Translations under genes and position numbers: made by a program
The notes under the pieces: generated by a model
The model's database searches: none
The model's input: the letters and a program-made list of their open reading frames with translations, nothing else
What the model was told of the DNA's origin: nothing
From: a virus
Length of the DNA stretch: 64,000 bases
Reading direction: 5' to 3' (one strand)
Virus record (IMG/VR): IMGVR_UViG_3300008952_003529
Shown here: positions 11,474-64,000 of the stretch, piece after piece
Position numbering within the stretch: the first letter of the stretch is position 1
Layout: each line of letters opens with the position of its first letter

Positions 11474-11502
11474 TAACTCCGGTTCATACCACTCTATAAA
11501 CT

Positions 11503-11532
11503 ACGGGGTCCCTTCGGGGGCCCCGTTTTTTT
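11503..11532 (+). terminator. Rho-independent terminator after the major capsid gene
   Basis: ACGGGGTCCC-TTCG-GGGGCCCCGT: a 10-bp stem (one G-U pair) with a UUCG loop, followed by a T run. Confidence 0.93.
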
Positions 11533-11581
11533 ACGCGTACATGAATATGTTTATGATTCTAGAAATAAGGGAGTTATTTTT

Positions 11582-11956: not shown

Positions 11957-12015
11957 TTCACTTCCACGAATGTGATTTTTTGCGCCTGGGTTCTATAGTT
12001 AGAACAGGGTGAGCT

Positions 12016-13203: not shown

Positions 13204-13209
13204 GGTGAT

Positions 13210-13896
13210 TTGATGGCTCGTCTTTTTATCACCCCCCGGGAAGTTGATCTTATATCTGACTTGACTAAAGAAGTCATGAAAGATGTTATTGGTCAAAAGA
13301 TTTATTATTATCGTATTCGGGAAGACCTTACGGAAATTCATGATGTGTATGAAGAGGCCGTAAATAAGATCTTTGATCCTCCAATCGATATTGATGCGAC
13401 AATCGAGTGGAACTCCCCCGTTGTAACAACAGGTCGTTTTGGTGTGGGAAAGAATCAAGAAATTGGTGCTTATTTACACTATAGAGACTTAATTGATAAG
13501 GGTATCGACGTCAGAGAGGGCGATTACTTCAGCTATGGTGAGGTATTCTTTGAAATAACTCAACTTCAGTGGCAGTCGACAATATATGGCGAAGTCGAAC
13601 ACACAACTGGCGTGAAACTCCAGGGCAAACAAGCTCGTAAGGGTCTAATTAATAAGGAACCAATCGGCCCAACAGACGAGGCCTATTATCCTGGAGACCC
13701 AAAAGCAGTGCAAGAGGTTTTTGTTCAACAACGCGGCTTCGCTGAAAATAGGCTCGGCCCAACGGGTGATGTCCGTGCTCTAATAGAGCAAGGAAAGATG
13801 CAATTACCTCCGACACCAGCACCAGCTGAGGTCTCTAAGAGGGTTCCACCGAATGAGCCGACACCAATCACTTCAAGATTTTATGATGAGACATAG
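13210..13896 (+). CDS. Neck / head-closure protein (T4 gp14-like)
   Basis: Follows the gp13-like gene; IGQKIYYY, VYEEA and VREGDYFSYGEVFFEI resemble gp14-type head-closure proteins. Confidence 0.75.
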   Translation: MMARLFITPREVDLISDLTKEVMKDVIGQKIYYYRIREDLTEIHDVYEEAVNKIFDPPIDIDATIEWNSPVVTTGRFGVGKNQEIGAYLHYRDLIDKGIDVREGDYFSYGEVFFEITQLQWQSTIYGEVEHTTGVKLQGKQARKGLINKEPIGPTDEAYYPGDPKAVQEVFVQQRGFAENRLGPTGDVRALIEQGKMQLPPTPAPAEVSKRVPPNEPTPITSRFYDET

Positions 13897-13898
13897 AG

Positions 13899-15242
13899 AT
13901 GTCAACACGATATAATACAACAGCATTCAAGGGTGGGCCACTAGACTTAGGATACTCAGGTGAGGATATTCCTCCTGATTTTGCTATTCCCTCTTGTACG
14001 ATAGAAGATGTTGATAGAGCATTGTTCAATTTTTTCAATGAAGAATTACCTCTTTTTTATAAGCGTCGGAAAGAAATGAAGAGGGTCCCAATAATTTTCG
14101 CAACTGGCGAGCGCTTTGCCATCCTTGCAAGAAACAAGCCTTTGAGAGATAAAGCCGGCGCGATTATTCTACCGCTAATATCCATCTTAAGAAGCGGGAT
14201 AGACCAAAATAGTGCCAAGGGTGCAATTCATGCACAGGGTGGTCCAATTACGATTAAGGTTCGACTTTCTGAAGATGACCCTCGATATCAACGCTTGCAG
14301 AATAGATTTGAATTTGAGAATTCTGATTCTGTGGCGGTAGCCGCAGATTCAAAGACTGCTGCTGGAACGGGTGGCGGCACTTCTGGCGGGAGGATTGCAA
14401 CTAGAAGAGAGGCGCCAGCGCTTCCGATTGCTCAACGTGGTGGATCTATGTTGACACCTCATACCTCAAAGAATATTGTCGAATTTATAGAGATTCCACC
14501 CATTAAACAATACACTGCAAATTATGAAATTACTTTTTGGACACAATACACTCAAGAAATGAATTCATTGTTGACTGTTTTGATGGGCGGTTATACGAGT
14601 CAATATCAAAGAACATTTTTGATTTCAACGACGGCCGGGTATAAATTCACCGCGTATATTGACGCAAGTTTAACACCCGGTAATAATTTTGATGACTTTT
14701 CGGAAGATGAAAGACTAGTTAAGTATAGCTTCAATGTAAGCATTCCAGCGTATGTTGTTGCTCCACAAGAAATAGGATTACCGGTGCCATTTAGGAGAAC
14801 AATTTCAGCCCCAGACATTAATTTTGGTACATCTGAATTAAGTGCCCAATTGGACACTGGACCGCCGTCTGGGGTTGCGTCAGGGGAACCTGGCCAATTT
14901 ATATTAGAAAATCTTGATACTGAAGATATGGGAATACCTGGACAAGCAATGCCAGCAGGAATTAATAGCACACTTACGAGTGGGTTTCCTGGTGTAGCCG
15001 CTGTTGTTTCGAACGCTATTAATATAGGATCTACAAATTCAGATTCGGTAACAACAGCAGCTTCATATCCGAACCGTCCGAAGGTAATAATTACTAAAAG
15101 AAACCCCTTCACTGGGAAGGATGAATACATTCAATTAAACGTGTTATATGCAAACAATAGAAAGGGAGAAACCGTTTTTAGACAATCAACTCAACCTCCG
15201 AGTGGATTTTCTATAGATTTAGGTGATCTCTTCAAGGATTGA
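13899..15242 (+). CDS. Tail terminator / sheath stabiliser (T4 gp15-like)
   Basis: Lies between the neck and sheath genes; IILPLISILRSGI and ANYEITFWTQYTQEMNSLL fit the gp15/tail-terminator pattern. Confidence 0.65.
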   Translation: MSTRYNTTAFKGGPLDLGYSGEDIPPDFAIPSCTIEDVDRALFNFFNEELPLFYKRRKEMKRVPIIFATGERFAILARNKPLRDKAGAIILPLISILRSGIDQNSAKGAIHAQGGPITIKVRLSEDDPRYQRLQNRFEFENSDSVAVAADSKTAAGTGGGTSGGRIATRREAPALPIAQRGGSMLTPHTSKNIVEFIEIPPIKQYTANYEITFWTQYTQEMNSLLTVLMGGYTSQYQRTFLISTTAGYKFTAYIDASLTPGNNFDDFSEDERLVKYSFNVSIPAYVVAPQEIGLPVPFRRTISAPDINFGTSELSAQLDTGPPSGVASGEPGQFILENLDTEDMGIPGQAMPAGINSTLTSGFPGVAAVVSNAINIGSTNSDSVTTAASYPNRPKVIITKRNPFTGKDEYIQLNVLYANNRKGETVFRQSTQPPSGFSIDLGDLFKD

Positions 15243-15307
15243 TATGACATTTACCCTTTGCACGAAATAGTTATTTGTGATGAAAGTAGATCCAGGAGAC
15301 CCGACTC

Positions 15308-18300
15308 ATGGCAGAACAGACATTTAGATCCCCCGGCTTCTTTGAGCGCGAAATAGATGCGTCAACAAGAAAGACCGAAATAACCGGAGTTCCAGCAGGA
15401 ATTATAGGCACTGCTGAGAAGGGACCAGCATTTGTACCCGTAACTGTGGGTAGTTTTCAAGACTTTGTTAATCGATTTGGAACAATAGATCCTGATCGAT
15501 TTGGACCATACGCGGTTCAAGCATTCTTAAAAAATAGAACTGCTGCAACATACATGCGCGTTTTAGGTGCCGGAGCGAATGAAACAACATCACAGATAAC
15601 GAATACACAAAATTATGGAACAGTTGTTAATGCTGGTCTTGTTTTGTCCGGTAACGTTTCTGCTTCGACTTCTAATGCAAACAATGGCGTTGTACAGTTC
15701 CTATGTGCTCGACATGATGCTGCAGCCTCCGAAGCAGTTGCGATGCCAGAGTTCACTGACAATCCGAGCTTTAATAACGCCGATGCTATGAAAATAGTTC
15801 GGGGTGTTATTTTTAATGCCACAACAGCACGTACACAAGTTATAGACCTGGATGAAACGTGGACGAGCACCGTCGACGATGAGTGCCAAATTGATAGTGG
15901 TGGTCTATTTGCTGTCGTTATTTCATCTTCGCTTGGGACAACTTTTGCGAACCAAGAAGATAATAATGGTACTGTGGTACCGGGTGTCAAGATTGTTTCT
16001 GCATCTTTAGATCCAGCTTCTCCAGCGTACATCTCGAATGTATTGAACACCGACCCCACGAAATTCGTTCAAGAACAGCATCTCCTATATCTTGATTTTG
16101 CCGTTGAAGATGAAATCGCACCAGTTGCGACCTCTGCAGCCGGCGTGGCCCTTCTGTCTGGGTCTGCGAACTTTGGAAAAACTTTACAGTCTGGTGCAGG
16201 GAATGAATTCACAATGCTCTTTGGGCGTTATGACACTCGCTACACAACACCCACAAGTCCCCAGATTATTTCGCAACCATTCGGAGGGACAGAGTATCCT
16301 CTTTTCCGGTTCGAAAGTCTATCTGATGGTGCTTACGGAAATGATAAAGTAAAGATTTCTATAGCAAACCTTCGCGCTAGTACAAACAAGAATTATAGGT
16401 ACGGAACATTCGAGGTCCAGGTTCGACGATTCGACGATACCGACTTAGCCCCCCAGATTCTTGAGAGCTATCCAGAGTGCAATCTAGACCCAAATTCTGA
16501 AAGCTTTATTGGTAGAAAAGTTGGCGACTATAAGACGTGGTATAACTTTGATGCTGAAAATGATGACGAACGTCGAATCATCGTCAGTGGAAAATATCCC
16601 AATCAGTCGGTATACATTCGCACGGTTATAAATGAAGCGGTATATAGAAGTGAGGTTCCTACTGACTCTTTACCTTTCGGCTTTTCTGGTATTCCAGCCC
16701 TCAAGACGTCTGATTCTTTAACTGATAATTCTCTATCACGCCTTGAGTTTGGTGGCGTTCCCTATGGAAACACTGGAAACACACGGTTGTGGGGTGACTG
16801 TAGTGCTGATGGCCTCGTAATGACTGGATCGATTATTCCTCCCCTTCCAATGCGCTTTAAGGTGACCAGAGGTGCTGTATCCACCACCGCATTCATGTCA
16901 GGCTGGCCCGGAGATGATGAAAGAGTGGATGGTCGCTTTTACTGGGGCGTAAAATTTGAAAGATGTCCAAAGGAAGATGACGTTACTAACGCAATCTTGA
17001 ACCAGAATATTTCCTCCGCGCCGAATTCAACCGTAGCTGCATATACTAAGTTCCAGGGAATTTCTAAACTTGATGCTCTAGTATCGGGAAGCGCAGTAGA
17101 TGCTTTCAACGCTAACAAGTTCACCCTTGCAAAGGTCGCCTTGGCTGGGACAGGAAGTGATACAACCGCCGCGACTCTGCTCTCAGAGGTTACGGCTTCC
17201 GCAAAAGAGCACATGCTAGAAGCAGCATACATCAGGAATGGTGTTCCAGATTCTCAGACATATGTTGTAGAAGATCCAGACGGATATGGTAAGCGTATCA
17301 CCTTCGCAACACTAGCACAGTCTTCGTCCATTAAGTTTAATAGATTTACAGCATATCTGAAGTTCACAACACCAATGTACGGTGGCTGGGATGGCTTAAA
17401 CATCTTGGACAAGGACATGTCTTTAATGAACGATAGAGCAACGTCAACAGACGCCTCTGGAGAGACAGGAAAGGCATCATCGGAATTCTCTGCAACAACA
17501 ATTGGGCTTGCAAGTAATCCAGCTGGAGACGGTAGACTCAATAACAATATTTTCGCTTATCGGGAAGCTGCCAGAATTATGACCGATCCTATGACGGTTC
17601 GAAATAATATTCTTTCCATCCCTGGAATAAGAGATTCTTATGTCACGGATTGGGCTGCTGATAGGACGAAGGCATACTCCATGGCTATTTACCTTATGGA
17701 CATCCCATCGTGGTCTGAGAATGCTGGTCGCCTATTTGGTGATGAGAACAGAACTCTTATCAAGAGCTCTTCGGATTCATTCCCAGATGTTCGTGAAACG
17801 GCGGAGCAATTTGAGTCTCGAGCAATCGATAACAACTATTGTGCGACATACTTCCCTGATGTGTATATTACTGACTCAAACAATCAGCAAGCTGTATTGG
17901 TCCCATCGTCAGTTGCCGCCTTGGCAGCGCTTGGGTATAATGACGCAGTCGCTTATCCTTGGTTCGCTCCCGCAGGGTTTAATCGAGGAAGTCTTGGGAT
18001 GGTAACCAATACTGACGCAAGATTGACTGCTAGCGATCGAGATGATTTATACGATGTACGAATCAATCCAATAGCAAACTTCCCGAATGGTGGGTTTGTA
18101 ATATTTGGACAAAAGACAATGCAGCTGTCTCAGTCTGCATTGGATCGTGTTAATGTACGTCGTATGATGCTTGAATTGAAGCGCCAGGTGGTTGCGGTCG
18201 CAAACAAGATTTTGTTTGAGCCAAATAATGCTGCGACGAGAGGACGCTTTATAAATCTAGTGACTCCATTACTAGCCGCGATTCAAGCGCAGCAGGGTAT

Positions 18301-47820: not shown

Positions 47821-48831
47821 ATGAAAGTAGCGCATATTGACTATATTTGGGTAGACGGGTTTGATGTACCATCAATTAGGTCAAAGACGAAGGTAGGTCC
47901 CATCACAACTAACGATGAGGGCCAATCCGCGATAGAAATAACACAGTGGAATTTTGATGGCTCATCGACCGGCCAGGCTTCGACGAGCGAGTCTGAAAGA
48001 CTTCTAACACCTGTTCGTCTTTACCAGGTGTCACCAAGCCAGTACATGGTACTTTGTGAGGTGGAGGACGTTGATGGAACAGCACATTCTACAAACCATA
48101 GAGCTGTTCTGCGAGAGTATCTTACGGAAAATCCGACCAAAAATCTTTGGCTTGGTTTCGAACAAGAATATTTTTTAACTGATAATAGAAGTAAGAATAT
48201 GTTTTGGGCGGGTGAAGTAGAGCCGCCAAACACACCCATGTATTATTGTTCTTCTGGTGGGGACAGAGTGATGAAACGAGGCTTAGTAAGAGCCCACGCT
48301 GATATTTGCTGGTCAATGGGAATTCAGGTTGTTGGATATAACGCTGAAGTCGCTCCAAGTCAATGGGAATTTCAATGTTTCGGTGAAGACACGCTAAAGG
48401 CATGTGATGATTTATGGGTTTCAAGATATATGTTGTCACTTCTCGCCGAGAACGATGGCGTTGGTGTCGATTGGTCCCCCAAGCCACATACAGGATGGAA
48501 CGGCTCAGGTTGTCATACTAATTTTTCAACCGAGGAGATGCGGACAGGTACGGACAACGAGAAGTTGTATAATAGCATTTTAGAAAAGATGTCCATGAAC
48601 CATACCTCAACGATATCAGAATATGGCGAAGGGAATAATGATAGATTAGTGGGAGCGTATGAGACATCTAGTTTCGAGAAGTTTTCGTACGGCGTCGCCG
48701 ACCGTAGTGCTTCTGTTAGGATTCCCACATCGACAGTCGACAACGAGTGGAAAGGGTATTTAGAGGACCGACGACCTTCTTCAAATTGTGATCCGTACCG
48801 AGTCGCAAACCAATTAATAAGATTTGTGTGA
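47821..48831 (+). CDS. glnII: Glutamine synthetase, type II
   Basis: DYIWVDG, RSKTK, WNFDGSSTGQA, GFEQEY, NAEVAPSQWEFQ, WNGSGCHTN, RSASVRIP and GYLEDRRPSSNCDPY. Confidence 0.93.
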   Translation: MKVAHIDYIWVDGFDVPSIRSKTKVGPITTNDEGQSAIEITQWNFDGSSTGQASTSESERLLTPVRLYQVSPSQYMVLCEVEDVDGTAHSTNHRAVLREYLTENPTKNLWLGFEQEYFLTDNRSKNMFWAGEVEPPNTPMYYCSSGGDRVMKRGLVRAHADICWSMGIQVVGYNAEVAPSQWEFQCFGEDTLKACDDLWVSRYMLSLLAENDGVGVDWSPKPHTGWNGSGCHTNFSTEEMRTGTDNEKLYNSILEKMSMNHTSTISEYGEGNNDRLVGAYETSSFEKFSYGVADRSASVRIPTSTVDNEWKGYLEDRRPSSNCDPYRVANQLIRFV

Positions 48832-48840
48832 GGGAATGCT

Positions 48841-50385
48841 GTGTCGTTAAAATTTACTGTTGATTTAACCGAAGAGCAGGCGTCTGTATTGTCTCTTGAT
48901 GTTATAACATTTTTAGACGCCTTATGTGAAGAGTTCAGTCTTACGATTGCTCATCTTCTGGATGAGCGTGGGGGATTTACACCTGGTTTTCTGGAAGAAA
49001 CGAAGTGGATACGAGAAAGCCAGTGGAAGATTGCGGATTTCTCAAAAGACCTCGAAGACAGACGTGTCGAAATTACTGGTCCTCCCGATCGAAAAATGAT
49101 AATCAACGCATTGAATTCCGGCGCGAATGTGTACATGGCAGACTTTGAGGACTCCAATTCTCCGACGTGGAGCAACTGTGTAAATGGCCAGATAAATTTG
49201 CGCGATGCGATTCATAACGAGATTGATTTTCATGATGAGAAAAGAGACAAAATGTACTCCCTCGGCTCCGAGCTAGCAGTGTTATTTGTTCGTCCCCGCG
49301 GACTTCATTTATCAGAGGGTCATGTGATTCATGATTTGTGGGATGCGCCAATTCCAGCAGCGCTCTTCGACTTTGGTGTTTACATTGCGAATAATATCAC
49401 CACCCTTGTGGAGACCGGCCGCAGTCCCTATTTTTATCTTCCCAAATTAGAGCACCACAATGAAGCTGCTCTTTGGAATAAGATTTTTTCATTTTCTGAA
49501 GAATATTTTGGCGTGAAGAATGGAGTTATTAAGGCAACTGTGTTGATTGAAACCCTTCCAGCGGCATTTCAAATGGACGAGATATTATACGAATTGCGAG
49601 AGCATTCAGTTGGGTTGAATTGCGGTCGGTGGGACTATATTTTTAGTTTCATAAAAACATTTCGAAATGACCCAAAGTATATTGTTCCTGATCGAGATGA
49701 AGTGGGTATGACGCAACATTTTATGCAGTCCTACTCGAGACTCTTAATACAAACATGTCACCGCCGGGGAGCGCATGCGATGGGCGGTATGGCTGCTCAG
49801 ATACCTATAAAGAACGACCCTGTAGCGAACTCAACCGCGATTAGAAAGGTAGAGCAAGACAAGATTCGGGAAGTAATGGATGGACATGACGGCACATGGG
49901 TAGCGCATCCAGGATTAGTGGCAATCGCAAAAAAAGTTTTCGATGAATATCTTATCACGCCCAACCAAATTAACAGACCTCTATCAAATATTGAGATATC
50001 AACTGAAGACTTGGTGGAAGTTCCTGTAGGATCTTTCACAGAGGAAATGTTAAGAAAAAATATAAAAATTGGATATGAATATATGAAGGCCTGGGTTGCG
50101 GGGTCTGGGTGCGTGCCTCTTAACAATTTAATGGAAGACGCCGCCACTGCTGAGATATCTCGTGCACAGACCTGGCAGTGGTTGCGGCATAACGTAATGC
50201 TTGATAACGGAGCTGTTGTGACGCAAGAGTATTTAGGCGCACTGTTTCAGGAAGAATTGATTGGTGAGTGCGGAGTAGCGTATGATCTATGGCACATATT
50301 GTGCTTTCAAAATAATATGGATGAGTTTTTAACACTACAAGCCTATAATAGCTTGGAATTAAATGGAAAATTGGAGATTCTCTGA
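48841..50385 (+). CDS. aceB: Malate synthase A
   Basis: [25 protein letters not shown] (catalytic Arg), [39 protein letters not shown] and [12 protein letters not shown] (catalytic Asp). Confidence 0.96.
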
Positions 50386-51623
50386 TGACAGCTAATAATC
50401 GATGGGACGGAATTACCCGCCCTTACTCCGCTGAGCAGGTAGATAAATTACGCGGCTCATTTCGTGAAAACTATGGTTTCGCAACACACGTTGCAACAAA
50501 GCTTTGGAACCAATTATGCTCTGAGCCCTACGTTCATGCAATGGGAGCTGTGACTGGAAATCAAGCGATGCAGATGGTCAAGGCCGGTACACCCTCGATT
50601 TATTGCTCTGGATGGCAAGTCGCCGCCGACGCGAATGATTCTCATTCCATGTACCCGGACCAAAGTTTATATGCGGTAAACAGTGTTCCAATGCTTATTG
50701 AAAAAATAAATAATGCTCTTCGTCGTGCCGACCAGGTCGAATGGATTGAAAATTGCGGGTCAATAAGAGACTGGTTCGCACCGATTGTTGCAGATGCAGA
50801 AGCAGGTTTCGGTGGAAACCTCAATGCGTTTGAATTGATGCAAGCAATGATTCGCGCCGGCGCAGCAGGGGTGCATTTTGAAGACCAGTTATCTTCGGCC
50901 AAGAAGTGTGGTCATTTAGGCGGAAAAGTTCTTGTACCGACCAGCGAGTTTGTTAAGAAATTGATAGCTGCTCGGCTAGCAGCGGATGTGATGGATGTAC
51001 CAACTATTTTAATTGCCCGTACCGATGCCGATTCAGCCCGTTTGATAACGTTAGATGTTGATCCTATAGACCAACAATTTATTACATCAAATGAACGAAC
51101 CGCAGAAGGATTTTATCATATCACTGGCGGGATAGATATGGCCATATCTCGAGGCTTGGCGTATGCGCCGTATGCCGACCTTCTTTGGTGCGAAACCAGC
51201 ACGCCTGATTTAGCAGAGGCGCAAAAATTCGCTGACGCTATACATGAAAAATTTCCCGGTAAGATGCTGGCGTATAATTGTTCACCTTCTTTTAACTGGC
51301 GCGCGAACCTCGATGATGAAACTATTGCAAAGTTTCAAAATTCTTTGGGGGAAATGGGTTACAAATTTCAGTTTATCACCTTGGCTGGTTTTCATTGCTT
51401 GAATTATTCAATGTTCAATTTAGCGCTGGATTACAATAAGCGAGATATGTCTGCATACGCCGAACTTCAAGCTGCTGAATTTGCCGCTGAAGATATTGGA
51501 TATACTGCTACAAAGCACCAACGTGAAGTAGGAACAGGATATTTCGACGCAGTTGCACAAACGATATCGTCAGATTCATCGACTTTAGCTTTAAAAGAGT
51601 CCACCGAAGCTGAGCAATTTTAG
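50385..51623 (+). CDS. aceA: Isocitrate lyase
   Basis: [33 protein letters not shown], active-site [35 protein letters not shown] and [12 protein letters not shown]. Confidence 0.97.
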
Positions 51624-52330
51624 TGAGTAGAATTGAATTATATGATGACAAGATAGGCGTTGTTGAATACGTTTCCCATATGGGAGAAGACATTACAGTT
51701 GTTAATAGCGCCAGGGTTTCTTTTGGGAAACATAAGGATGTAATGGATGACAAAGATAGAAAGCTTATTAAGTATCTTATCAAACATAAGCATACGTCAA
51801 CACTCGAACACTGTGTTATAACATATCGGTTCATAGTACCCCTTTTCGTTCGAAGCCAGCATCACCGTCATCGAACATGGAGCTATAACGAGATATCACG
51901 TCGTTATACTGACGAGAATCTCCGGTTTTATGAGCCAGCAAGTTTCAGAACGCAGCATAAATCCAATCGACAAGCTTCAAATATTAATGAGCTAAGGGAC
52001 CCTGTAGTGATACCAGACCTTTCGGATACGGATTATGGTATGACTGCATCTCAAGTTGTCAGTGATCATCACCGACGTTCTGTAATGTTATACAACGATC
52101 TTCTCAGGGTAGGTGTATGCCGCGAACAGGCTCGAGGTGTTCTCTCCCAAAACCTGTACACTGAGTATTACGGAACTGTCAATTTAAACAATCTTTTAAA
52201 GTTTGTTTCGCTTCGAACCCATGACGGTGCCCAATGGGAGATTCAACAAGTAGCAAAAGCTTGTTTAGAAATTGCTAAAAATTGCTGGCCAGAAACAATA
52301 GAAGCCTATCAAGAATTAACATCATCTTGA
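51623..52330 (+). CDS. thyX: Flavin-dependent thymidylate synthase ThyX
   Basis: VNSARVSF, LIKHKHTSTLEH, ThyX motif RHRTWSYNEISRRY, REQARGVL, LR...GAQWEI. Confidence 0.95.
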   Translation: MSRIELYDDKIGVVEYVSHMGEDITVVNSARVSFGKHKDVMDDKDRKLIKYLIKHKHTSTLEHCVITYRFIVPLFVRSQHHRHRTWSYNEISRRYTDENLRFYEPASFRTQHKSNRQASNINELRDPVVIPDLSDTDYGMTASQVVSDHHRRSVMLYNDLLRVGVCREQARGVLSQNLYTEYYGTVNLNNLLKFVSLRTHDGAQWEIQQVAKACLEIAKNCWPETIEAYQELTSS

Positions 52331-53099: not shown

Positions 53100-53333
53100 A
53101 TGAACACTAATGAACTAAAAATGAATGATGATGCAATCAATCATCTCGCAAAGCTTCTGCAAATGGCTATTTTAACTGGTACTGATATTATGGACAATCT
53201 TCGTTCTGCTACATTTGTTGTACACAACGATGAGCTTCATATCCATCCAGATTATCATGAAGCGTTTGAGCAGAATATTCAAAATATGATGTCTGCCTTG
53301 GCAACTGAAGAAGAAGTTGAAGAAGTTGAGTGA
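53100..53333 (+). CDS. Hypothetical protein
   Basis: 77 aa with a GGAGG Shine-Dalgarno; TATAAT at 53071-53076 upstream. Confidence 0.75.
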   Translation: MNTNELKMNDDAINHLAKLLQMAILTGTDIMDNLRSATFVVHNDELHIHPDYHEAFEQNIQNMMSALATEEEVEEVE

Positions 53334-53700
53334 CAAATTAGACCAAATGTTCGCCCGGCGGACAGCGTTTATGACACGCTTAAAGGGAAAGAAGCCAGCT
53401 GAGTATCCAGATTGGCCGATCGATTTGTCAGATAAACGAAACCAACAGCACGTAAGAGATATGGCTCTAAGGGGTGTTGAGGAAATGTTCGAGGCATTGC
53501 AGCATCTCAAAAACTGGAAACCGCATAGAGACACAGAGGTTCATGAATTTGATAGAAGCGAATTTTTGGAGGAGGTTGTTGATGCGTTTAACTACTTTAT
53601 GTCAGTACTTGTCTTGACTGGAGTCGATGCTGAAGAGCTTTTTAGCGCGTACTGTGAAAAAGACCAGATAATTCATGATCGGTTGGATGAGGGTTATTGA
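53317..53700 (+). CDS. All-alpha NTP pyrophosphatase (dimeric dUTPase / T4 gp56 dCTPase family)
   Basis: Motifs EEMFEALQHLKNWKPH and FLEEVVDAFNYF; the start codon is uncertain (53317, 53326 or 53347). Confidence 0.8.
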   Translation: MKKLSDKLDQMFARRTAFMTRLKGKKPAEYPDWPIDLSDKRNQQHVRDMALRGVEEMFEALQHLKNWKPHRDTEVHEFDRSEFLEEVVDAFNYFMSVLVLTGVDAEELFSAYCEKDQIIHDRLDEGY

Positions 53701-55474: not shown

Positions 55475-58400
55475 ATGCGAAAGACGAAACTAATCCCACC
55501 CAGTAAATTTATCTCCCTTCATTCACATGACGGGTTTTCTACTTTTGACGGTTTGGGGTACCCACAAGAACACATCGATTTTGTTATTGAGAATGGCATG
55601 GATGGATGGTGTCTTACTAATCATGGTCATATGAATTCTTTTGGTCATGCATTTCTCCATGCAGAAAAAGTTCAAAAGCGCGGTGGTTCGTTTAAGTTCG
55701 TTCCAGGCTGTGAAATGTATGTGCATCCTGACCTTGAAGTATGGCAGCTCGATTACGAAATTAGGCAAGCAGCAAAGAAGGGTGACAAGGAGGCTATGTT
55801 CGCTCTTAGAGAGCGTCGTGAAGCAATAACAACTCCTCTTACTGCGATCATTGATGGCGATGATGAGATTGTTGATATAGGCAAAGAAGACGCTGGCCTC
55901 ACTGTAGAAAATGAAGAGGAAACCAAGTCTGGGAAATTTTATGATCCAGTAAAGCGTCGTCATCATCTTGTGGTTTTGCCAAAGACGAGTGAAGGTCTCC
56001 AGCGCTTGTTTCATCTCGTAAGTAGAGGTTACAGAGAGGGCTTCTATAGGTTCCCCCGTGTAGACTATAGGATGTTAAGGGAAGCCGCCCAGGGTGGCCA
56101 TCTGATGATTTCTACAGCATGTATCGGCGGTCCTATTGCTTATGAGGTGTTTCGACATGCTCAACAGATAGAATTTGATGATTTAAAGCATACTTTACTT
56201 GACGATCCTTCATTTCACCGTAATGTGATGACAGGAGTTGGGAACGCGTACCAAGGTCTTGTTGATGCGGTTGGAATGGATGATGTACATCTAGAGCTTC
56301 AATTTAACAAGCTTCCTGCACAACACCTTGTTAATCGTGCGATTATTGAATTTGCAAACAACAATGGTCTAAATGATAAGCTTGTCGTTACAACGGATTC
56401 ACATTATGCTCGTCCTGAGCATTGGCGGGAGCGTGAACTTTACAAGAAGTTGGGGTGGTTAAATTATCGTGAATTCGACCCATCTAAGTTGCCACAATCA
56501 AGAGATGACTTGAAATGTGAACTCTATCCCAAGAATGCACATCAGGTTTGGGACACATATCTTGAGTCAGCCGATGGCATGGATTTTTATGATGATCAAA
56601 TAGTAAAAGATGCGATCGAACGGCCCCATGGGATAGTACATGAGGGTATTCAAGACATTGCCCCTGACCGCACTATGAAGCTCCCATCTTACGTTGTCCC
56701 CGAAGGACAAACTGATGATAAGGCGCTTCTTGAGGCTTGTAAAAAGGGGCTTATTGAACGCGGCTTTGCAAGCGACCCGAAGTATATTGAGCGCTTGAAG
56801 TATGAGTTGAAAGTTATCAAAGACAAGAAGTTTTCTCGATACTTTTTGACCATGACGGCAATCATTAACATCGCAAGAAAAGCAATGTTGGTCGGTCCTG
56901 GCCGAGGCTCCGCCGCCGGCAGTCTTGTTGCGTATGTGCTTCGACTAACAGACGTAGATCCTTTTGAGTACGACTTAATGTTCGAGAGATTTTTGAACCC
57001 TTCTCGAAAAGGCGCCCCTGATATTGATACCGACGTCGGTGACCGCGATCTTTTGATTCAATTAATGAAAGATGAATGGGGTGATGAAAATATCATTCCT
57101 ATTTCGAACTACAACACCTTTAAGCTAAAATCACTTGTTAAGGATATTTCTCGTTTTTATGGAATTCCATTTCACGAAGTAAATAAGGCATTGTCCACCG
57201 TCGATCAAGACGTACGGCGAGCTGTTTTTAAGCCGGGTACTGATAAGAACCTGTTTGTCCTTTTGTACGAAGACGCGCTAGCACATTCGTCGAAGTTTCG
57301 GACATTCATTGAAAAACATCCAGAAGTAGCAGAGCCTATCCAGGTTTTGTTTAAGCAGAACAAGGCCTTGGGTCGACATGCTGGTGGGTGTATTGTAGCA
57401 GAGAATATTTCCGAAAGAATGCCACTAATCAAAGCCCGAGGAGAGCTTCAAACTCCATGGGCCGAAGGGATGAACTACAAACATCTTGAAACATTCGGGT
57501 GGATTAAGTTTGATCTTCTCGGCCTTGAGACACTACGGATTATCCAAAGAACGATTGAGCTTATCCTTCAACGAAAGGAGGGTATCGAAGAGCCTACATT
57601 CGAGCAGGTTTCGGAGTGGTTTGAGACTCACATGAATCCCAAGATTTTAGATTTGAATGACCAGCATGTTTATGAGCATGTTTATGCTGAAGGTCGGTTC
57701 CCGGGTGTGTTTCAGTTGGCTAATCGAGGCTCTAGAAATCTCTTTAAGAAAGCCAAGCCAAAGAGCATTGTTGATATTGCAACACTGACGTCGATTTATC
57801 GTCCTGGTCCACTAACTGCAAAAGTTGATAGACACTACATTAAGGCAAAGAACAATCCGGGCAGTGTGGATTATGGTCATCCGCTGATTAAAGAAGTTCT
57901 TGAAGAAACATATGGGATGATTGTTTTTCAAGAGCAAATCATGCAATTGTGCTCTGTGGTCGCTGGTTTCCCAGAAGAAGAAACCGACACTGTGCGTCGT
58001 AGTATTATGAAGAGAAAGGCATCGGAAGCAGAGGAGTCTTTGGCTCAGGCCAGAGCGATTAAGGAACAGTTCGTTGCAGGTGCTGTAGGGAATGGTGTCG
58101 ATCGACAGTTGGCAGACGACCTTTACGAGAAGATTTTGTACTTCTCTGGCTATGGATTCAATAAGGCACATGCTGTTTCATATGCTATTGACTCTTACTA
58201 CTGTGCTTGGCTGTTGACGTATTACGAGGAAGAGTGGCTTTGCGCTTATCTAGAAGCTATGTCTGGTAATGATAAAAAGCGAGCTAAGGCTTTTGCTGAA
58301 GTTAAGGCTCTCGGTTATCGGGTTGCTCCAATTGATATCAATTATGCAACCAAGAAGTGGACAATTCTTGAGGGGAAAAAGTTCATGCCATCTCTTCTTT

Positions 58401-59083
58401 CATGTAAGGGCATCGGTGCAGCAGCTATCGACGAGCTTGTAGCTAATCGTCCTTACCAGAAAATTGATGATTTGCTCTGGACAGAAGACGGAAAATGGAA
58501 GCACTCTAAATTTAATAAACGCGCAATGGAGGCGCTGATTAACATTCGTGCATTCGAATCAATGAACCTTATCGGCAGCGAGTTTGAGTCTTATAAACAT
58601 ATGCATGAAGTCTTGATTGGTAAGAATAACGATATTAAAAAATGGACTAAAAAGGATGCTGATCGCGGAAGAAGAAATTATCGAGAAGCATTGTTAGAAA
58701 CGCAAGGTTGCGGAGACTGGTCTCGCAGAGAGCGTGTCGAGAACAGCGTAAAGCACTTCGGCTCGTTTAACGCATCCACCCTAATTTCAGACGAAGTACA
58801 AGATAAGTTAACAGAAATGAATATCCATCCTATCGATGCGATTAATGGGCATGATTTGTATTGGTTTCTCGTGTCTGAGGTGAAGCCAAAGATGACAAAG
58901 AATAATCGCCCATATTTGCTCGTTACAGCCACAGCATTGTCAGGTCAAACATACCGAATGTTTTGCTGGGGATGGGATGGAGAGACAGAGCTACCACTTT
59001 ACAGCCTTTGTGTCGCAGAAGTAAAAAAGAACGACTTTGGGTATCAAACGTCAATGAAAAAAGTAAAATTGCTACAAATGTGA
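55475..59083 (+). CDS. dnaE: DNA polymerase III alpha subunit (family C, DnaE-type)
   Basis: PHP domain SLHSHDGFSTFDG, TNHGH, GCEMY and TTDSHY; GPGRGSAAGSLVAY; catalytic PDIDTD; GRHAGG; KFDLLGL; GVFQL; YGFNKAHAVSY; no intein seen. Confidence 0.96.
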   Translation: MRKTKLIPPSKFISLHSHDGFSTFDGLGYPQEHIDFVIENGMDGWCLTNHGHMNSFGHAFLHAEKVQKRGGSFKFVPGCEMYVHPDLEVWQLDYEIRQAAKKGDKEAMFALRERREAITTPLTAIIDGDDEIVDIGKEDAGLTVENEEETKSGKFYDPVKRRHHLVVLPKTSEGLQRLFHLVSRGYREGFYRFPRVDYRMLREAAQGGHLMISTACIGGPIAYEVFRHAQQIEFDDLKHTLLDDPSFHRNVMTGVGNAYQGLVDAVGMDDVHLELQFNKLPAQHLVNRAIIEFANNNGLNDKLVVTTDSHYARPEHWRERELYKKLGWLNYREFDPSKLPQSRDDLKCELYPKNAHQVWDTYLESADGMDFYDDQIVKDAIERPHGIVHEGIQDIAPDRTMKLPSYVVPEGQTDDKALLEACKKGLIERGFASDPKYIERLKYELKVIKDKKFSRYFLTMTAIINIARKAMLVGPGRGSAAGSLVAYVLRLTDVDPFEYDLMFERFLNPSRKGAPDIDTDVGDRDLLIQLMKDEWGDENIIPISNYNTFKLKSLVKDISRFYGIPFHEVNKALSTVDQDVRRAVFKPGTDKNLFVLLYEDALAHSSKFRTFIEKHPEVAEPIQVLFKQNKALGRHAGGCIVAENISERMPLIKARGELQTPWAEGMNYKHLETFGWIKFDLLGLETLRIIQRTIELILQRKEGIEEPTFEQVSEWFETHMNPKILDLNDQHVYEHVYAEGRFPGVFQLANRGSRNLFKKAKPKSIVDIATLTSIYRPGPLTAKVDRHYIKAKNNPGSVDYGHPLIKEVLEETYGMIVFQEQIMQLCSVVAGFPEEETDTVRRSIMKRKASEAEESLAQARAIKEQFVAGAVGNGVDRQLADDLYEKILYFSGYGFNKAHAVSYAIDSYYCAWLLTYYEEEWLCAYLEAMSGNDKKRAKAFAEVKALGYRVAPIDINYATKKWTILEGKKFMPSLLSCKGIGAAAIDELVANRPYQKIDDLLWTEDGKWKHSKFNKRAMEALINIRAFESMNLIGSEFESYKHMHEVLIGKNNDIKKWTKKDADRGRRNYREALLETQGCGDWSRRERVENSVKHFGSFNASTLISDEVQDKLTEMNIHPIDAINGHDLYWFLVSEVKPKMTKNNRPYLLVTATALSGQTYRMFCWGWDGETELPLYSLCVAEVKKNDFGYQTSMKKVKLLQM

Positions 59084-59117: not shown

Positions 59118-60146
59118 TTGTACGCAGGAAGTTTCGAGAGTTTTACTGAATGTTATATTGAGTTGATTAAAGAGGTCTATAACAATCCGACCTATATGTC
59201 AGCTCCTCGTGGGCAAAAGATTAAAGAAAAACTGGGTGTTTCATTTACAATCGAGAACCCCAGAGATCGAATTCCGTATGTTGCGGGTCGAAAATTTAGT
59301 ATTTCTTATATGGTCGCTGAGCTATTGTGGTACCTTTCAGCCAATAATAAGACTGAGTGGATTTCAAGGTATTCGGCTTTCTGGAAAGATATTAGTGATG
59401 ATGGTGTAACTGCAAACTCTGCTTATGGTGCCCGCTTGTTTGAGAAGCACCCCAAGATTGCCGATGGCCGTTATAGACAGTGGCAATATGTTGTAAATGA
59501 GCTTAATCGTGATAGAGATTCTAGAAGAGCCGTGATGCACCTACGTGTTCCAGCTGATAGTATCGATGCTCGGCTTGATGTTCCCTGTACTTTATCACTT
59601 CAATTTTTTATTCGTGATGAAAAGCTCCACATGATTGTGAATATGCGCAGTTCTGACCTTATTTTTGGGATTGCTTATGATATACCTGCATTTACACTTT
59701 TCCAGGAAATTTTAGCTGAGCAACTGGAAGTCGGCCTCGGTTCTTATACACACATGAGTAATTCTCTTCATATTTACGAGCGGCATTTCGAGATGGTCGA
59801 AGGTATTTTGGCCAGAGAAAATCGTACTCTTAAACTTCACGAAACTCATGGTCCAATGCCTCCACTCGGATCATTGAATTGTAAGCAGTGGGTTCTTGAA
59901 GGGTGGATTGAGACACTAATGAAAGCTGAAGATCATATTAGCAGCTTAACTAGCCCGATAGAAATTCAGCAAGCATTTAATACTCATTTCATATCGACAG
60001 AAGAAGCTGACAACGTTTGGTCAGACTGGGCCAGGGTCTTGGCCGCACACAGATTAAGAAAGCTTGGCTTTACTGAAGATGCGAACCGTGTTCAAAACCA
60101 GACGGCATTTTCTGGTTATTCATTCAACATTAAAAAAGAGGGATAG
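59118..60146 (+). CDS. Thymidylate-synthase-fold dCMP-modifying enzyme (dCMP hydroxymethylase-like)
   Basis: AELLWY, NSAYG, DSRRAVM, catalytic Cys in DVPCTLSLQF, NMRSSDLIFG and SLHIYERHF. GIAYDIPAF has Asp where dUMP-specific ThyA has Asn (GLPFNIASY). TTG start. Confidence 0.85.
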   Translation: MYAGSFESFTECYIELIKEVYNNPTYMSAPRGQKIKEKLGVSFTIENPRDRIPYVAGRKFSISYMVAELLWYLSANNKTEWISRYSAFWKDISDDGVTANSAYGARLFEKHPKIADGRYRQWQYVVNELNRDRDSRRAVMHLRVPADSIDARLDVPCTLSLQFFIRDEKLHMIVNMRSSDLIFGIAYDIPAFTLFQEILAEQLEVGLGSYTHMSNSLHIYERHFEMVEGILARENRTLKLHETHGPMPPLGSLNCKQWVLEGWIETLMKAEDHISSLTSPIEIQQAFNTHFISTEEADNVWSDWARVLAAHRLRKLGFTEDANRVQNQTAFSGYSFNIKKEG

Positions 60147-60148
60147 AA

Positions 60149-61273
60149 GTGACAAATTACGATTATCTTATTGTCGGCGCCGGACTTTTTGGTGCAACTT
60201 TTGCGAGGGAAATGACAGATGCTGGAAAAAAGTGCCTTGTTATTGACAAGCGTCCGCATATTGGCGGAAACGTTTATTCAGAAAATAGGAATGGAGTTGA
60301 TGTGCATGTATACGGAGCTCATATTTTTCATACTAGTAGTGATCGTATTTGGGAGTATGTAAATCGATTTGCAACATTCAACAATTACGTCAATAAACCA
60401 AAGGTCAGGTTTGGCGATAGGATTTTTTCTTTTCCTATTAATTTAATGACGCTACACCAGCTTTGGGGTGTGATGACACCTGCGGAAGCCGAGGCAAAGC
60501 TTAAGGAAGTTCGTATTCCATGCGAGAATCCAGATAATTTAGAGGACTGGATCTTATCTCAAGTTGGTCGTGAAGTATATGAGACATTCATTCGTGGATA
60601 CACAATGAAGCAATGGCAAAGGGATCCTCGAGAGCTACCTGCATCAATCATTAAGCGACTTCCCATTCGTATGGTTTTCGAGGAGAATTATTTCTTTGAC
60701 AAGTATCAAGGGATTCCTGTCAAAGGGTATACAGAGATGGTCAATAATATGCTTGAGGATATTACGGTCATGACCGGCATGGATTACTTCGCACAACGTG
60801 AACACTTCAATTCTTTAGCGGAAACAGTCGTATTTACTGGGAAGGTGGATGAGTATTTTGATTTTTGCCATGGTGAACTAGAGTATAGAACTCTCCGATT
60901 TGAGCATGAAGAGCTCGAAGGGGATTTCCAGGGAAATGCAGTTGTGAACTATACCTCACCAGACATTCCCTTCACTCGAATCGTTGAGCACAAACATTTT
61001 CTACCGTCTACCGCAAGCAAGTTGCCTAATACTATTGTTACACGAGAATATTCTGACGAGTATAAGCGAGGAAAGACGCCGTATTATCCCATTAACAATG
61101 ATCGAAATAACATGATGTATAAGAAATATGCAGCGATGGCCGCCGCGGAAGATGATGTAATTTTTGGTGGTAGGTTGGCAGAGTACAAATATTATGATAT
61201 GCATCAAGTTATTGGTTCTGCGCTTGTAAAAGCCAAGCGAGAGCTCAATAATCAATCAATGGAGAAAGAATGA
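60149..61273 (+). CDS. glf: UDP-galactopyranose mutase
   Basis: IVGAGLFGA (FAD binding), HIGGN, YGAHIFHT, GYTMKQW, YQGIP, LEYRTL, FTRIVEHKHF, PYYPIN and GGRLAEYKYYDMHQV. Confidence 0.96.
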   Translation: MTNYDYLIVGAGLFGATFAREMTDAGKKCLVIDKRPHIGGNVYSENRNGVDVHVYGAHIFHTSSDRIWEYVNRFATFNNYVNKPKVRFGDRIFSFPINLMTLHQLWGVMTPAEAEAKLKEVRIPCENPDNLEDWILSQVGREVYETFIRGYTMKQWQRDPRELPASIIKRLPIRMVFEENYFFDKYQGIPVKGYTEMVNNMLEDITVMTGMDYFAQREHFNSLAETVVFTGKVDEYFDFCHGELEYRTLRFEHEELEGDFQGNAVVNYTSPDIPFTRIVEHKHFLPSTASKLPNTIVTREYSDEYKRGKTPYYPINNDRNNMMYKKYAAMAAAEDDVIFGGRLAEYKYYDMHQVIGSALVKAKRELNNQSMEKE

Positions 61274-61476
61274 GCCGTATTAATAGAGGCCGCCGCCGCA
61301 AAGAAGAACTTCGTGAAGTAGTAGAAGAAAATACAAAGGAACGTGCTAAACGATCGCCACAGCAGCAATTGGATTTGCTTGATGAAAGACTTGGCATCGG
61401 AATCGGAGCAGTTCGCGAACGAAAGCACTTACAGAAACTTTTAGCAAATAGTAAAAATAAAAAGGACAAAAAATGA
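61270..61476 (+). CDS. Small basic hypothetical protein
   Basis: 68 aa with ATGA overlaps on both sides; RSPQQQLDLLDERLGIGIGAVRER. Confidence 0.75.
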   Translation: MSRINRGRRRKEELREVVEENTKERAKRSPQQQLDLLDERLGIGIGAVRERKHLQKLLANSKNKKDKK

Positions 61477-62528
61477 GAGTACTTTACAGCTTTTGGGGAT
61501 TTATTACCCCTCTTGAGAAAAACAGCATTGTCGACACACCTGATGGTGAACGAGGAAATCGAGTTGACTGGGTAAACGAACTATTAAAGCGCGGTCATAC
61601 ACCAATTCAGCTTCAAAAGATGCGTGATGACGAGCAGTATCTGGGGGTTGAGTATGACGACTCTGGTTTCCCTGATGGCGATATTCTTTATGTAGAGTGG
61701 CGCTGGCCGACCTGGAAGAATTCCGGTCAGAATCCTGTTGAGTCTGATTATAATCGCCAATGCGAAGTACTTGACTATTACCATGAACAAGGAATTCCCA
61801 TTGTGATAGTTGACGGTGATTTGAAGATGACGCCTGAGGAAGAGTTGCGCTGGCCAGATGCCATCTTAGCAGATGCATGTGTCGACCCCCAGCACCAAAC
61901 TCGTAAGCGTATTACAATTCCCTGGTGCAATTATATGAAGCGATACTTCGATCCAGTAGAATATTCGTACAATTATACATACGTCGGTAACAATTACGAA
62001 CGTGAATATCAATTCGGGAAATACTATATTGACCCAAGCCGATATCTGAGAGAGGAGGGAATCCAGACTACGATTTATGGAAATTGGCTTCAGAAATCGC
62101 CTGAAAGAGTTGATCCGGGAGAGCTCTTAGCCAAGACGCCTTGCGTTGCGTTTGGACCTCGCTTGGCATACAAAGATATTTTTAGTGTATTGAACTCTTC
62201 TATCACGGTAACTCACATTACAAAGGATGCGTATACTCCATTTGGCAACATCACAGGAAGATTTTTTGAGGCGATCAAAAGTAACGTTCCTGCGTTGATT
62301 CCAATTGAGTTTCGGCATGCATTACCTGTCGGGCTAAAGGGTGGCGCTCTTGTGGTTGAAACGGCAGATGATGTGATCGATAAGGTGAAGTGGATTTCAA
62401 CGTTAAGTGCCACAGAGCGAAAAGCGCTAGTCGACGAGCAAGAAGAAGCTCTACGTACTGTTATCGACCCTCGCCCTGAATATCGCACTGATCTTCTTGA
62501 ACATATTGTGGGAGATTATCAAGCATGA
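61473..62528 (+). CDS. GT-B glycosyltransferase resembling T4 DNA beta-glucosyltransferase
   Basis: 351 aa. IVIVDGDLK, YTYVGNNYER, TTIYGNW and NSSITVTHITKDAYTPFGNITGRFFEAIKSNVPALIPIEF parallel the T4 BGT segments as I recall them (YLFTDIRL, VIYGG, IEFFGN, NFITLRVWETMASDAVMLIDEEF). Confidence 0.72.
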   Translation: MRVLYSFWGFITPLEKNSIVDTPDGERGNRVDWVNELLKRGHTPIQLQKMRDDEQYLGVEYDDSGFPDGDILYVEWRWPTWKNSGQNPVESDYNRQCEVLDYYHEQGIPIVIVDGDLKMTPEEELRWPDAILADACVDPQHQTRKRITIPWCNYMKRYFDPVEYSYNYTYVGNNYEREYQFGKYYIDPSRYLREEGIQTTIYGNWLQKSPERVDPGELLAKTPCVAFGPRLAYKDIFSVLNSSITVTHITKDAYTPFGNITGRFFEAIKSNVPALIPIEFRHALPVGLKGGALVVETADDVIDKVKWISTLSATERKALVDEQEEALRTVIDPRPEYRTDLLEHIVGDYQA

Positions 62529-63088
62529 AAGTTGCATTTATTGGTCCCGATATGACGGGGAAATCGAACATCGCTGCTGAGCTTTCGAAACAAACGGGCG
62601 TTCCAGTTTTTAAGAATTCTGGAGAGTGGAAAACGCAGTTAAACAGCTCGGAGTACTTTCTTAACCTACTGAGATTTGGTGGCCCATTTTTGATGGATTT
62701 CATCCGGCAAACAAACGTATCAGTCATCTTAGACCGTTTTTATCCTTGTGAGATGGTATATTCGCAAGCTTTCGGTCGAGAAACGGACGACACCGCATTA
62801 GCGTGGATGGACAAGAATTTCGCAGAGGTAGGCGGAAAGTTCATTATTTGCGTTCGGAATGACTATTCAGATTTGATTGATGATCAATATCCTGAAGACC
62901 TGCCGCCAAATGTATTGGGTGCTTTAACTCTTCATTATCGAAAGTTTGCTAAATGGACAGGGTGTGAATGCTTGATTTTGGAAACAGATGATATGGACCT
63001 GAACAATCAGGTAAAAAAGATTAAAATGTTCTTAGGAATTAAGAATAGGGAAGATATGCAAGCGGAGGATTTTTGTAGTCATGCGTAA
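62525..63088 (+). CDS. dNMP kinase (thymidylate-kinase-like P-loop)
   Basis: P-loop GPDMTGKS and the TMPK-type ILDRFYPCEMVYS motif. Confidence 0.85.
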   Translation: MKVAFIGPDMTGKSNIAAELSKQTGVPVFKNSGEWKTQLNSSEYFLNLLRFGGPFLMDFIRQTNVSVILDRFYPCEMVYSQAFGRETDDTALAWMDKNFAEVGGKFIICVRNDYSDLIDDQYPEDLPPNVLGALTLHYRKFAKWTGCECLILETDDMDLNNQVKKIKMFLGIKNREDMQAEDFCSHA

Positions 63089-64000
63089 AGCTTTAGTTAC
63101 TGGCTGTTGTGGTTTTATTGGTGGACATCTTACTAGAATGTTAGTGAAAGATGGGTGGAATGTTGTTGGCGTCGACGATCTTTCAAATGGTGATCCAGAC
63201 GTCCTTCATGATATTGATATTCGATGTGTCCCACCGGCACTTCTCCCTGCCTATAACGGCGCGGAAGATGTAGACAAGACACTTATTATTACTGGTGATT
63301 TTGCAAATGAACATATTCTCATGAGAGCCGACCGCGGCGATTTTGATGTTATTTTTCATCTTGCCGCGAATCCACGGGTAGAGTATTCTGTAAAGAACCC
63401 TGCATCGACAACTCATACAAACGTCCAGAAGACGATTGAGCTAATGACTGCGGCCGTTGGAAAGATTGATCGATTTGTATTTGCTTCTTCTTCCGCAGTG
63501 TATGGTAACGGGGTTTCATTACCAACCAAAGAGTCTGAGTCAACAAATCCTCAATCTCCATACGCTCTACAGAAACTTGTAGTTGAGCAATTCGGTGAAA
63601 TGTACAGTGAACTCTATGGCTTAGATTTTGTTGCATTGAGGTTTTTCAATGTATACGGCCCCGGACAGCTTGGGAGTTCTCCGTATTCTACTGCAATCGC
63701 CGCGTGGTGTGATAAGCTGAAGGCTGGAAAGCCCCTCCGAAGTGACGGGGACGGGGAGCAAAGTAGAGATATGGTTTATGTTGAGGATGTCTCCAGGGCC
63801 CTTATTACGTGTGCAGAACGAAACAGCTCCTTTGGATTTGAAGTATATAACGTAGGCGCAGGTCAATCATTGACAAATAATCAAATTTTGAATGGCCTTC
63901 GTGAATATTTTCCATCAATGGAAATCACGCATGCGCCTGAACGAACAGGAGACGTCAAGCATACTTTGGCTAACGTTAATAAGATTGAAACTGAAGTTCT
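63081..64000 (+). CDS. NAD-dependent UDP-sugar 4-epimerase (extended SDR, GalE/WbpP-like); partial, cut by the window end
   Basis: Missing from the ORF track. My translation from ATG 63081: ALVTGCCGFIGGHL, GVDDLSNG, VIFHLAA, FVFASSSAVYG, SPYALQK (YxxxK), LRFFNVYGP and QSRDMVYVEDV; open to the window end. Confidence 0.9.
   Translation, partial: MRKALVTGCCGFIGGHLTRMLVKDGWNVVGVDDLSNGDPDVLHDIDIRCVPPALLPAYNGAEDVDKTLIITGDFANEHILMRADRGDFDVIFHLAANPRVEYSVKNPASTTHTNVQKTIELMTAAVGKIDRFVFASSSAVYGNGVSLPTKESESTNPQSPYALQKLVVEQFGEMYSELYGLDFVALRFFNVYGPGQLGSSPYSTAIAAWCDKLKAGKPLRSDGDGEQSRDMVYVEDVSRALITCAERNSSFGFEVYNVGAGQSLTNNQILNGLREYFPSMEITHAPERTGDVKHTLANVNKIETEV

Follow-up and report, generated by a model that had tools for sequence, protein, structure and literature searches.

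This work concerns a window of 64,000 nucleotides, bases 78268-142267 of the 178,344-bp virus record IMGVR_UViG_3300008952_003529 in IMG/VR, in which six genes directly after a DnaE-type polymerase gene are best read as an operon that replaces cytosine in phage DNA by the logic of T4, with a changed sugar supply. The product would be galactofuranosyl-5-hydroxymethylcytosine, a reading to which we assign a probability of about 0.5. That the pathway makes 5-hydroxymethylcytosine (hmC) and glycosylates it is likely, and galactofuranose (Galf), the five-membered-ring form of galactose made by the UDP-galactopyranose mutase Glf, is a plausible cap. With an estimated completeness of 44% (CheckV), the record represents only a fragment of a jumbo-phage genome.

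The six open reading frames (ORFs) lie on the + strand and begin 34 nt after the end of the DnaE gene, and their junctions consist of one 2-nt gap, three 4-nt overlaps and one 8-nt overlap. These coordinates agree with the first-pass annotation, made from the sequence alone, which had described six tightly packed genes after dnaE with a single 2-nt gap and overlaps elsewhere. The features on which the argument draws are as follows.

51623-52330, + strand: ThyX, flavin-dependent thymidylate synthase (PF02511, E 2e-46)
53317-53700, + strand: all-alpha NTP pyrophosphatase related to the T4 gp56 dCTPase/dUTPase (PF08761 dUTPase_2, E 9e-5)
55475-59083, + strand: DnaE-type replicative polymerase, anchoring the replication module (PF07733, PF17657, PF02811, PF14579)
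59118-60146, + strand: predicted dCMP hydroxymethylase of ThyA fold and MilA/T4 gp42 type, 342 aa (PF00303, E 7e-35)
60149-61273, + strand: UDP-galactopyranose mutase (Glf), 374 aa (PF03275, E 8e-78; TIGR00031, 367 bits)
61270-61476, + strand: 68-aa basic protein (pI 10.7; conserved in homologs)
61473-62528, + strand: GT-B glycosyltransferase, predicted to act on hmC in DNA, 351 aa (predicted fold, donor motif)
62525-63088, + strand: P-loop kinase (YorR/dNK-like), predicted hm-dCMP kinase, 187 aa (P-loop GPDMTGKS; profile match to YorR)
63081-64000, + strand: extended short-chain dehydrogenase/reductase (SDR) read as an NDP-sugar 4-epimerase, 330 aa (PF01370, E 3e-50); it ends 73 nt past the window and is complete at L001:4081-5073

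The identity of the modified base depends on the first of the six genes, whose product had been called a dCMP-type enzyme of the thymidylate synthase (TS) fold, a description upheld by the PF00303 match and by a full hydroxymethylase signature. The best match of this TS homolog in the PDB is the CMP 5-hydroxymethylase MilA (5jnh, E 5e-42), followed by ThyA (~1e-21) and T4 gp42 (4e-16), and it carries a C-terminal extension of roughly 100 aa. Aligned with E. coli ThyA, T4 gp42, RB69 gp48 and the RL38J1 homolog, and numbered as in E. coli ThyA, it has the catalytic Cys146 together with Glu58, Arg126, Asp143, Ser167, Asp169 and Asp177, which is the pattern of T4 gp42. By contrast, RB69 gp48 and the RL38J1 homolog, which are proven 5-hydroxy-dCMP synthases and served as controls in the alignment, have Phe58 and Asn169. 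An acidic residue at position 143 gives water access to the methylene intermediate. In published work, such a residue (as against Leu143) marks enzymes with non-methyl products (PMC13326640), Asp177 (as against Asn177) marks cytosine rather than uracil as the substrate (PMC13326640, PMC5175136), Ser167 and Arg126 select deoxyribose, MilA having Ala/Lys (Zhao et al. 2016, PMC5175136), and ThyA homologs with Asn169 are flavin/O2-dependent 5-hydroxy-dCMP synthases (Lee et al. 2026, NAR, PMC13326640). Judged by its residues, the TS homolog lacks none of the determinants published for dCMP hydroxymethylases, and its predicted product is 5-hydroxymethyl-dCMP (hm-dCMP), neither 5-hydroxy-dCMP nor hm-CMP. 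Hence the original wording, hmC or another 5-hydroxylated cytosine, can probably be narrowed to its first half, as the hydroxymethylase signature is present and Asp169 is retained, without the D169N substitution diagnostic of 5-hydroxy-dCMP synthases of the RB69 gp48 type. This signature is stable across related contigs, with Cys146, Ser167, Asp169 and Asp177 kept in 58 of 58 TS homologs, and Asp143 in 56, the two distant exceptions having Asn.

The surrounding nucleotide metabolism is consistent with this role. The phage encodes ThyX, which supplies dTMP, and the ThyA-fold enzyme is therefore free for another function. The pyrophosphatase shares 33% identity with T4 gp56 over 76 aa in a pairwise BLASTP comparison (E 4e-8) and is kept in close relatives, and it is predicted to remove dCTP and thereby supply the hydroxymethylase with dCMP. 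Together with a dCMP deaminase encoded just 3' of the operon, this gp56-like dCTPase completes a T4-like gene set. The kinase, which adjoins the glycosyltransferase gene in 57 loci, had been proposed as a deoxynucleoside monophosphate kinase. A P-loop kinase it is, but probably not of the T4 gp1 type: its family profile retrieves SPbeta YorR (2axp, E 6e-13) and then the deoxyguanosine kinase dGK (2jaq, E 3e-4), the assignment as a P-loop kinase being weak with the single sequence, and gp1 (1dek/1del) was neither listed up to E 10 with the single sequence nor present in the best 60 of 134 profile matches (E up to 1). Its sequence is therefore better described as YorR/dNK-like than as gp1-like.

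The second gene and the sixth would provide the sugar donor. The identification of Glf is confirmed by PF03275 and by a score of 367.1 bits against the TIGR00031 equivalog cut-off of 303.75. Its match to E. coli UDP-galactopyranose mutase (UGM; 1i8t, E 2e-125) spans the full length of the protein, and in a phmmer alignment to that structure the FAD-binding GxGxxG motif is present and the residues we take to form the substrate site (Y151, W156, R170, Y181, R247, R278, E298, Y311, Y346 and D348) are all identical. Its motifs HIFHTS and SIIKRLP align with HIFRTS and SIIRRLP of the bifunctional, GalNAc-capable C. jejuni UNGM (4mo2), placing His and Lys at the positions of Arg59 and Arg168, which presumably serve N-acetyl recognition in that enzyme. 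Glf thus reads as a canonical mutase with a Gal-type rather than a GalNAc-type pocket. In an alignment to E. coli GalE, the epimerase retains GxxGxxG, the S124/Y149/K153 triad and the UDP-binding arginines, and is without the Asp-Glu pair of dehydratases. As the SDR triad is kept and the dehydratase pair is absent, a 4-epimerase is the sensible reading.

The glycosyltransferase (GT) required a different approach, because its only Pfam match was to Glyco_trans_1_2, below threshold, and the original label of T4-BGT-like, after the T4 beta-glucosyltransferase (BGT), therefore called for a test of the fold. An AlphaFold model built on 37 homologs reached a pLDDT of 92.4, and the top match was T4 BGT both in Foldseek (1c3j, E 8e-10) and in VIA (Z 22.8, rmsd 3.6, 306 of 351 residues, 15% identity). 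The Foldseek matches also include a GT-B DNA arabinofuranosyltransferase (HY126, 9iqz). The motif R263-x-x-E266 is invariant in the family and aligns with R269-x-x-E272 of BGT (hhalign 66% probability, E 5.5e-5). On the evidence of the model, this is a GT-B enzyme with BGT-like features in its donor site that lies outside PF09198, and its gene context predicts that its acceptor is hmC in DNA. No match to it emerged from tblastn of 50,697 phage records, and BLASTP was not significant against either T4 BGT or the GT of Lactobacillus brevis phage ATCCB, the latter reaching a probability of only 2.6% with the GT family in hhalign.

Put together from what is known of these families, the pathway would begin with the gp56-like pyrophosphatase converting dCTP to dCMP, to which the ThyA-fold enzyme would add a hydroxymethyl group from methylene-tetrahydrofolate. 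The P-loop kinase would phosphorylate the resulting hm-dCMP to hm-dCDP, a host NDP kinase would yield hm-dCTP, and the phage DnaE polymerase would incorporate it, presumably in full replacement of cytosine. After replication, the GT-B enzyme would move a sugar onto the 5-hydroxymethyl group of the DNA. The donor would be made on site, with the 4-epimerase converting UDP-glucose to UDP-galactopyranose, and Glf contracting the ring of the latter to give UDP-galactofuranose, such that the DNA would contain galactofuranosyl-hmC.

Comparative genomics shows that the core of this pathway is widely conserved, and that Glf has been added to it repeatedly. The GT family comprises at least 194 homologs, and the context was examined at 57 IMG/VR loci and five assembly contigs. 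The synteny search proposed at the outset found the GT, TS and kinase genes together near DnaE in nearly every one of about 60 contigs, the gaps being mostly cut-off or distant loci, with GT identities of 24-86% and the epimerase present in most. Glf was found in 22 loci. It lies beside the core in a well-supported clade (SH-aLRT 99) to which this phage belongs and which holds 12 distinct GTs, in L072 (in the order Epi-Glf-Kin-GT-Epi-TS), and in L077 and L079 (Glf-Kin-GT-TS-dCMP deaminase-DnaE), with the GLF domain confirmed by Pfam in L072 and L077; it recurs beside such a core in ATCCB. On the GT tree, from a quick IQ-TREE search, presence of Glf changes at least three times, and on the Glf tree the three phage groups are kept apart by other Glfs. 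Because these groups are not each other's closest relatives, separate captures fit better than inheritance. A bacterial Glf, from Thermonema lapsum, falls in the sister group of the clade to which the Glf of this phage belongs and has 64% identity, as against only 52% and 32% for L072 and L077. T. lapsum, a member of the Bacteroidota, also has the nearest named cellular Glf (64-65% identity), a weak hint of the donor or host lineage of the phage clade.

The small basic protein noted between Glf and the GT is likewise borne out, with a pI of 10.7 and 19 homologs of 60-99% identity, and ORFs in L094 and L095 occupy the same place between the two genes. It is absent in 17 other Glf-bearing relatives. 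In most Glf-bearing relatives Glf and the GT are separated by about 20 nt, and the gene amounts to some 200 nt inserted in one sub-clade only. It is therefore a real gene limited to that sub-clade, and may be a further component of the pathway.

Among 50,697 phage records, Glf occurs in 90, many of them Pootjesviridae or T4-like Aeromonas phages. In one of the latter, 60AhydR15PP, Glf (PF03275, E 6e-54) lies beside uncharacterised proteins of 358 and 328 aa (L006:8004-10184), and a TS of gp42 type (D143/D169/D177) is encoded elsewhere in the genome. This cultured phage may thus hold a further hmC system linked to Glf, and Aeromonas Tulanevirus phages combine a gp42-like TS with Glf. The two neighbouring proteins were considered as relatives of the GT family or of BGT, and no relation was detectable.

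Several observations weigh against a galactofuranosyl cap, and are best considered with the alternatives to which they lend themselves. The proposal that Galf is the cap gains from the joining of Glf to the core in at least three lineages and in ATCCB, but in the majority of relatives the same GT family operates with no Glf present. Within the functional motifs, moreover, the GTs of the Glf clade and its sister clade differ only at positions 11, 14, 99, 178 and 269, mostly conservatively, and no clear switch in the donor pocket separates them from Glf-less GTs. Hence the GT might instead attach a pyranose (glucose, galactose or an N-acetylhexosamine) to hmC, leaving Glf to serve a second sugar step, or the synthesis of a glycan on the virion or host surface. 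A possible consumer lies outside the window, at 9935-17661 of the genome (L028), in an island that follows proteins of 1267 and 1354 aa without Pfam matches. The island encodes a 649-aa protein containing a GT2 domain, three more GT2 genes, a GT6 (PF03414, E 3e-31), a methyltransferase-like gene and a GT1-like gene, and could consume UDP-Gal or UDP-Galf, GT6 enzymes typically taking UDP-Gal or UDP-GalNAc. Against this stand the translational coupling of Glf between TS and GT in this phage, and the placement of Glf beside the kinase-GT-TS core on three separate occasions, and again in ATCCB. Glf is, moreover, always situated next to the genes of the DNA-modification core. Furthermore, relatives that possess Glf and relatives that do not both have GT2 islands, and the GT6 is missing from a 92%-complete relative with Glf. 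The GT6 was not found in five relatives, although its absence is weak evidence because these records are fragments. We regard a pyranosyl cap as unlikely, though it deserves to be taken seriously.

A second group of observations concerns the enzymes' specificities. The call of a UDP-sugar 4-epimerase stands insofar as the protein is an extended SDR with its triad, but its identity as GalE does not follow: it scores 149.1 bits against the galE model TIGR01179, for which the cut-off is 262.3, it falls under every equivalog cut-off, and the TviC and RmlB models score nearly as high. Its nearest solved relatives are epimerases of the UDP-GlcNAc type (6dnt, 6wjb, WbgU, WbpP), and a Thr occupies the gatekeeper position at which E. 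coli GalE has the bulky Tyr299. The GalE score below its cut-off and the small gatekeeper residue mean that the substrate is not fixed. The same two enzymes could accordingly make a different furanose, either arabinofuranose (Araf; UDP-Xyl to UDP-Arap to UDP-Araf) or N-acetylgalactofuranose (UDP-GlcNAc to UDP-GalNAcp to UDP-GalNAcf). UGM enzymes also have a side activity on UDP-Ara. Arabinofuranosyl-5-hydroxycytosine has been shown in RB69 and DLP3, but the known phage routes to Araf rely on other enzymes (an Ara5P isomerase and a kinase/uridylyltransferase; PMC13326640), neither of which this operon encodes, and the His and Lys of Glf at the UNGM arginine positions argue against GalNAcf, making another furanose an improbable cap.

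The GT might also act on something other than DNA. In that case the sugar genes would build a glycan for the virion or a surface, and the TS homolog would yield only plain hmC or serve nucleotide metabolism. The GT has no PF09198 match (the T4 BGT family, CAZy GT63) at E <= 0.01, it is acidic (pI 4.9, against 9.05 in T4 BGT), and in VIA its scores are tied with GT-B enzymes that act on lipids and small molecules, BshA, PimA and PglA all falling within 1 Z of T4 BGT. Likeness to BGT holds at the level of the fold, at which BGT is the top match but tied with other GT-B enzymes, and not at the level of the family. Nevertheless, the GT is kept in the replication and nucleotide module, in some 60 contigs, beside the predicted hydroxymethylase and the kinase, T4 BGT heads its matches by structure and by profile, and the other glycan genes sit in a separate island. 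An acceptor other than DNA is therefore the least probable of these alternatives, and very improbable. Galactofuranosyl-hmC remains the reading we prefer.

A close parallel in logic is the glucosyl-hmC system of T4 (gp56, gp42, gp1 and the alpha- and beta-glucosyltransferases), with which this phage shares the folds of the dCTPase, hydroxymethylase and GT-B enzyme, the active-site signature of gp42 and the R-x-x-E donor motif of BGT. It differs from T4 in its YorR/dNK-like kinase, a GT outside PF09198 and a polymerase of DnaE type, as well as in encoding enzymes for the donor sugar, the epimerase and Glf, neither of which T4 possesses. The cultured L. brevis phage ATCCB (MK504445) provides another parallel, with adjacent genes for a kinase, TS, BGT and Glf (0044-0047), of which the kinase is homologous to the one described here (hhalign 95%) and the TS has the same D143/D169/D177 signature. 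In this 80-kb phage of a Gram-positive host, however, there is no epimerase, and the GT is a true PF09198 BGT (E 9e-22), unrelated in sequence to the GT of the marine phage. The paper on its isolation mentions neither these genes nor DNA modification.

The first-pass annotation had stated that Glf was not known in DNA modification, which has been overtaken by work on the Rhizobium phage RL38JI (Pootjesviridae), for which UDP-Galf made by a phage Glf was proposed as the donor for a hexosylated 5-hydroxycytosine, the base-proximal sugar being galactose (PMC13326640). RL38JI resembles this phage in that a ThyA homolog, a nucleotide kinase and GT-B transferases are all encoded along with the phage Glf (PMC13326640). 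Its ThyA homolog, however, is a flavin-dependent 5-hydroxy-dCMP synthase with Asn169/Phe58, and its sugar is therefore ether-linked directly to C5, whereas the Asp169/Glu58 found here predict a hydroxymethyl group. In addition, the Glf of RL38JI lies far from the TS and GT genes (~69 kb versus ~131 kb), rather than inside the operon. Phage pairs of a GT and a sugar epimerase, the 'subclass II' clusters, are also instructive, as epimerase-dependent GT activity on 5hmC has been shown for them (bioRxiv 10.1101/2023.12.21.572611). As predicted for this operon, an adjacent epimerase reshapes the UDP-sugar pool, with Hex, HexNAc or HexA as products on 5hmC, but unlike here the 5hmC is made after replication, by a methyltransferase and a TET-like oxygenase, and neither a mutase nor a furanose was reported for these clusters (10.1101/2023.12.21.572611). 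The literature yielded no description of a galactofuranosyl-hmC base, and none of an hmC operon that contains Glf. Hence Galf on hmC is undescribed so far, although furanosyl cytosines are themselves known.

Just 5' of thyX, a malate synthase (PF01274, E 1e-104) adjoins an isocitrate lyase (PF00463, E 1e-94) at 48841-51623, the pair constituting a phage-borne glyoxylate shunt, and a glutamine-synthetase-like gene lies at 47821-48831. On the 3' side, the epimerase is always followed in the close and sister clades by a 146-aa cupin (L001:5063-5503, equivalent to 64063-64503 of the window), which lacks the His metal ligands, and has invariant Trp, Lys, Glu, Cys and Tyr residues. Comparison of its fold gave only a generic cupin, without an informative match, and it could be one more component, one that modifies or binds sugars. 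There follow a DHH/DHHA1 phosphoesterase, an MT-A70 adenine methyltransferase and the dCMP deaminase (L001:5525-7350), and then a protein with a Fe/Mn superoxide-dismutase C-terminal domain (L001:9403-10110), the order from the phosphoesterase to this last gene being kept across relatives. DnaE is split or interrupted in some relatives (L015:1027-3291, L021:128-5628), with Intein_splicing domains called within the L015 fragments. Scans for promoters and terminators gave signals at chance level only, and no tRNAs were found in the window.

DNA near-identical to this stretch, counted as present in a run when half or more of the sampled words matched, is present in the marine and seawater metagenomes of five or more studies besides the likely source study; no RNA runs were listed as holding it among public runs. 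It is plausible, although we advance it tentatively, that a cosmopolitan clade of marine jumbo phages has 5-(galactofuranosyl-oxymethyl)cytosine in place of cytosine, and that furanosyl capping is a recurrent, independently evolved form of counter-defence, with Glf captured by at least three lineages, by ATCCB and by the Pootjesviridae.

Restriction enzymes and CRISPR nucleases are kept off phage DNA by glycosylated hmC, to which hosts respond with nucleases that read particular sugars. A furanosyl cap, if true, would be a new chemical answer in the arms race between phages and their hosts. DNA glycosyltransferases would also gain a new class of substrate, and enzymes with which to label 5hmC might be obtained from such systems. 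Glf beside a D169-type ThyA homolog, a GT-B enzyme and a YorR-like kinase provides a genomic marker by which such systems can be recognised. The module is widespread in marine metagenomes, and the cultured phage ATCCB offers a proxy that makes the idea directly testable.

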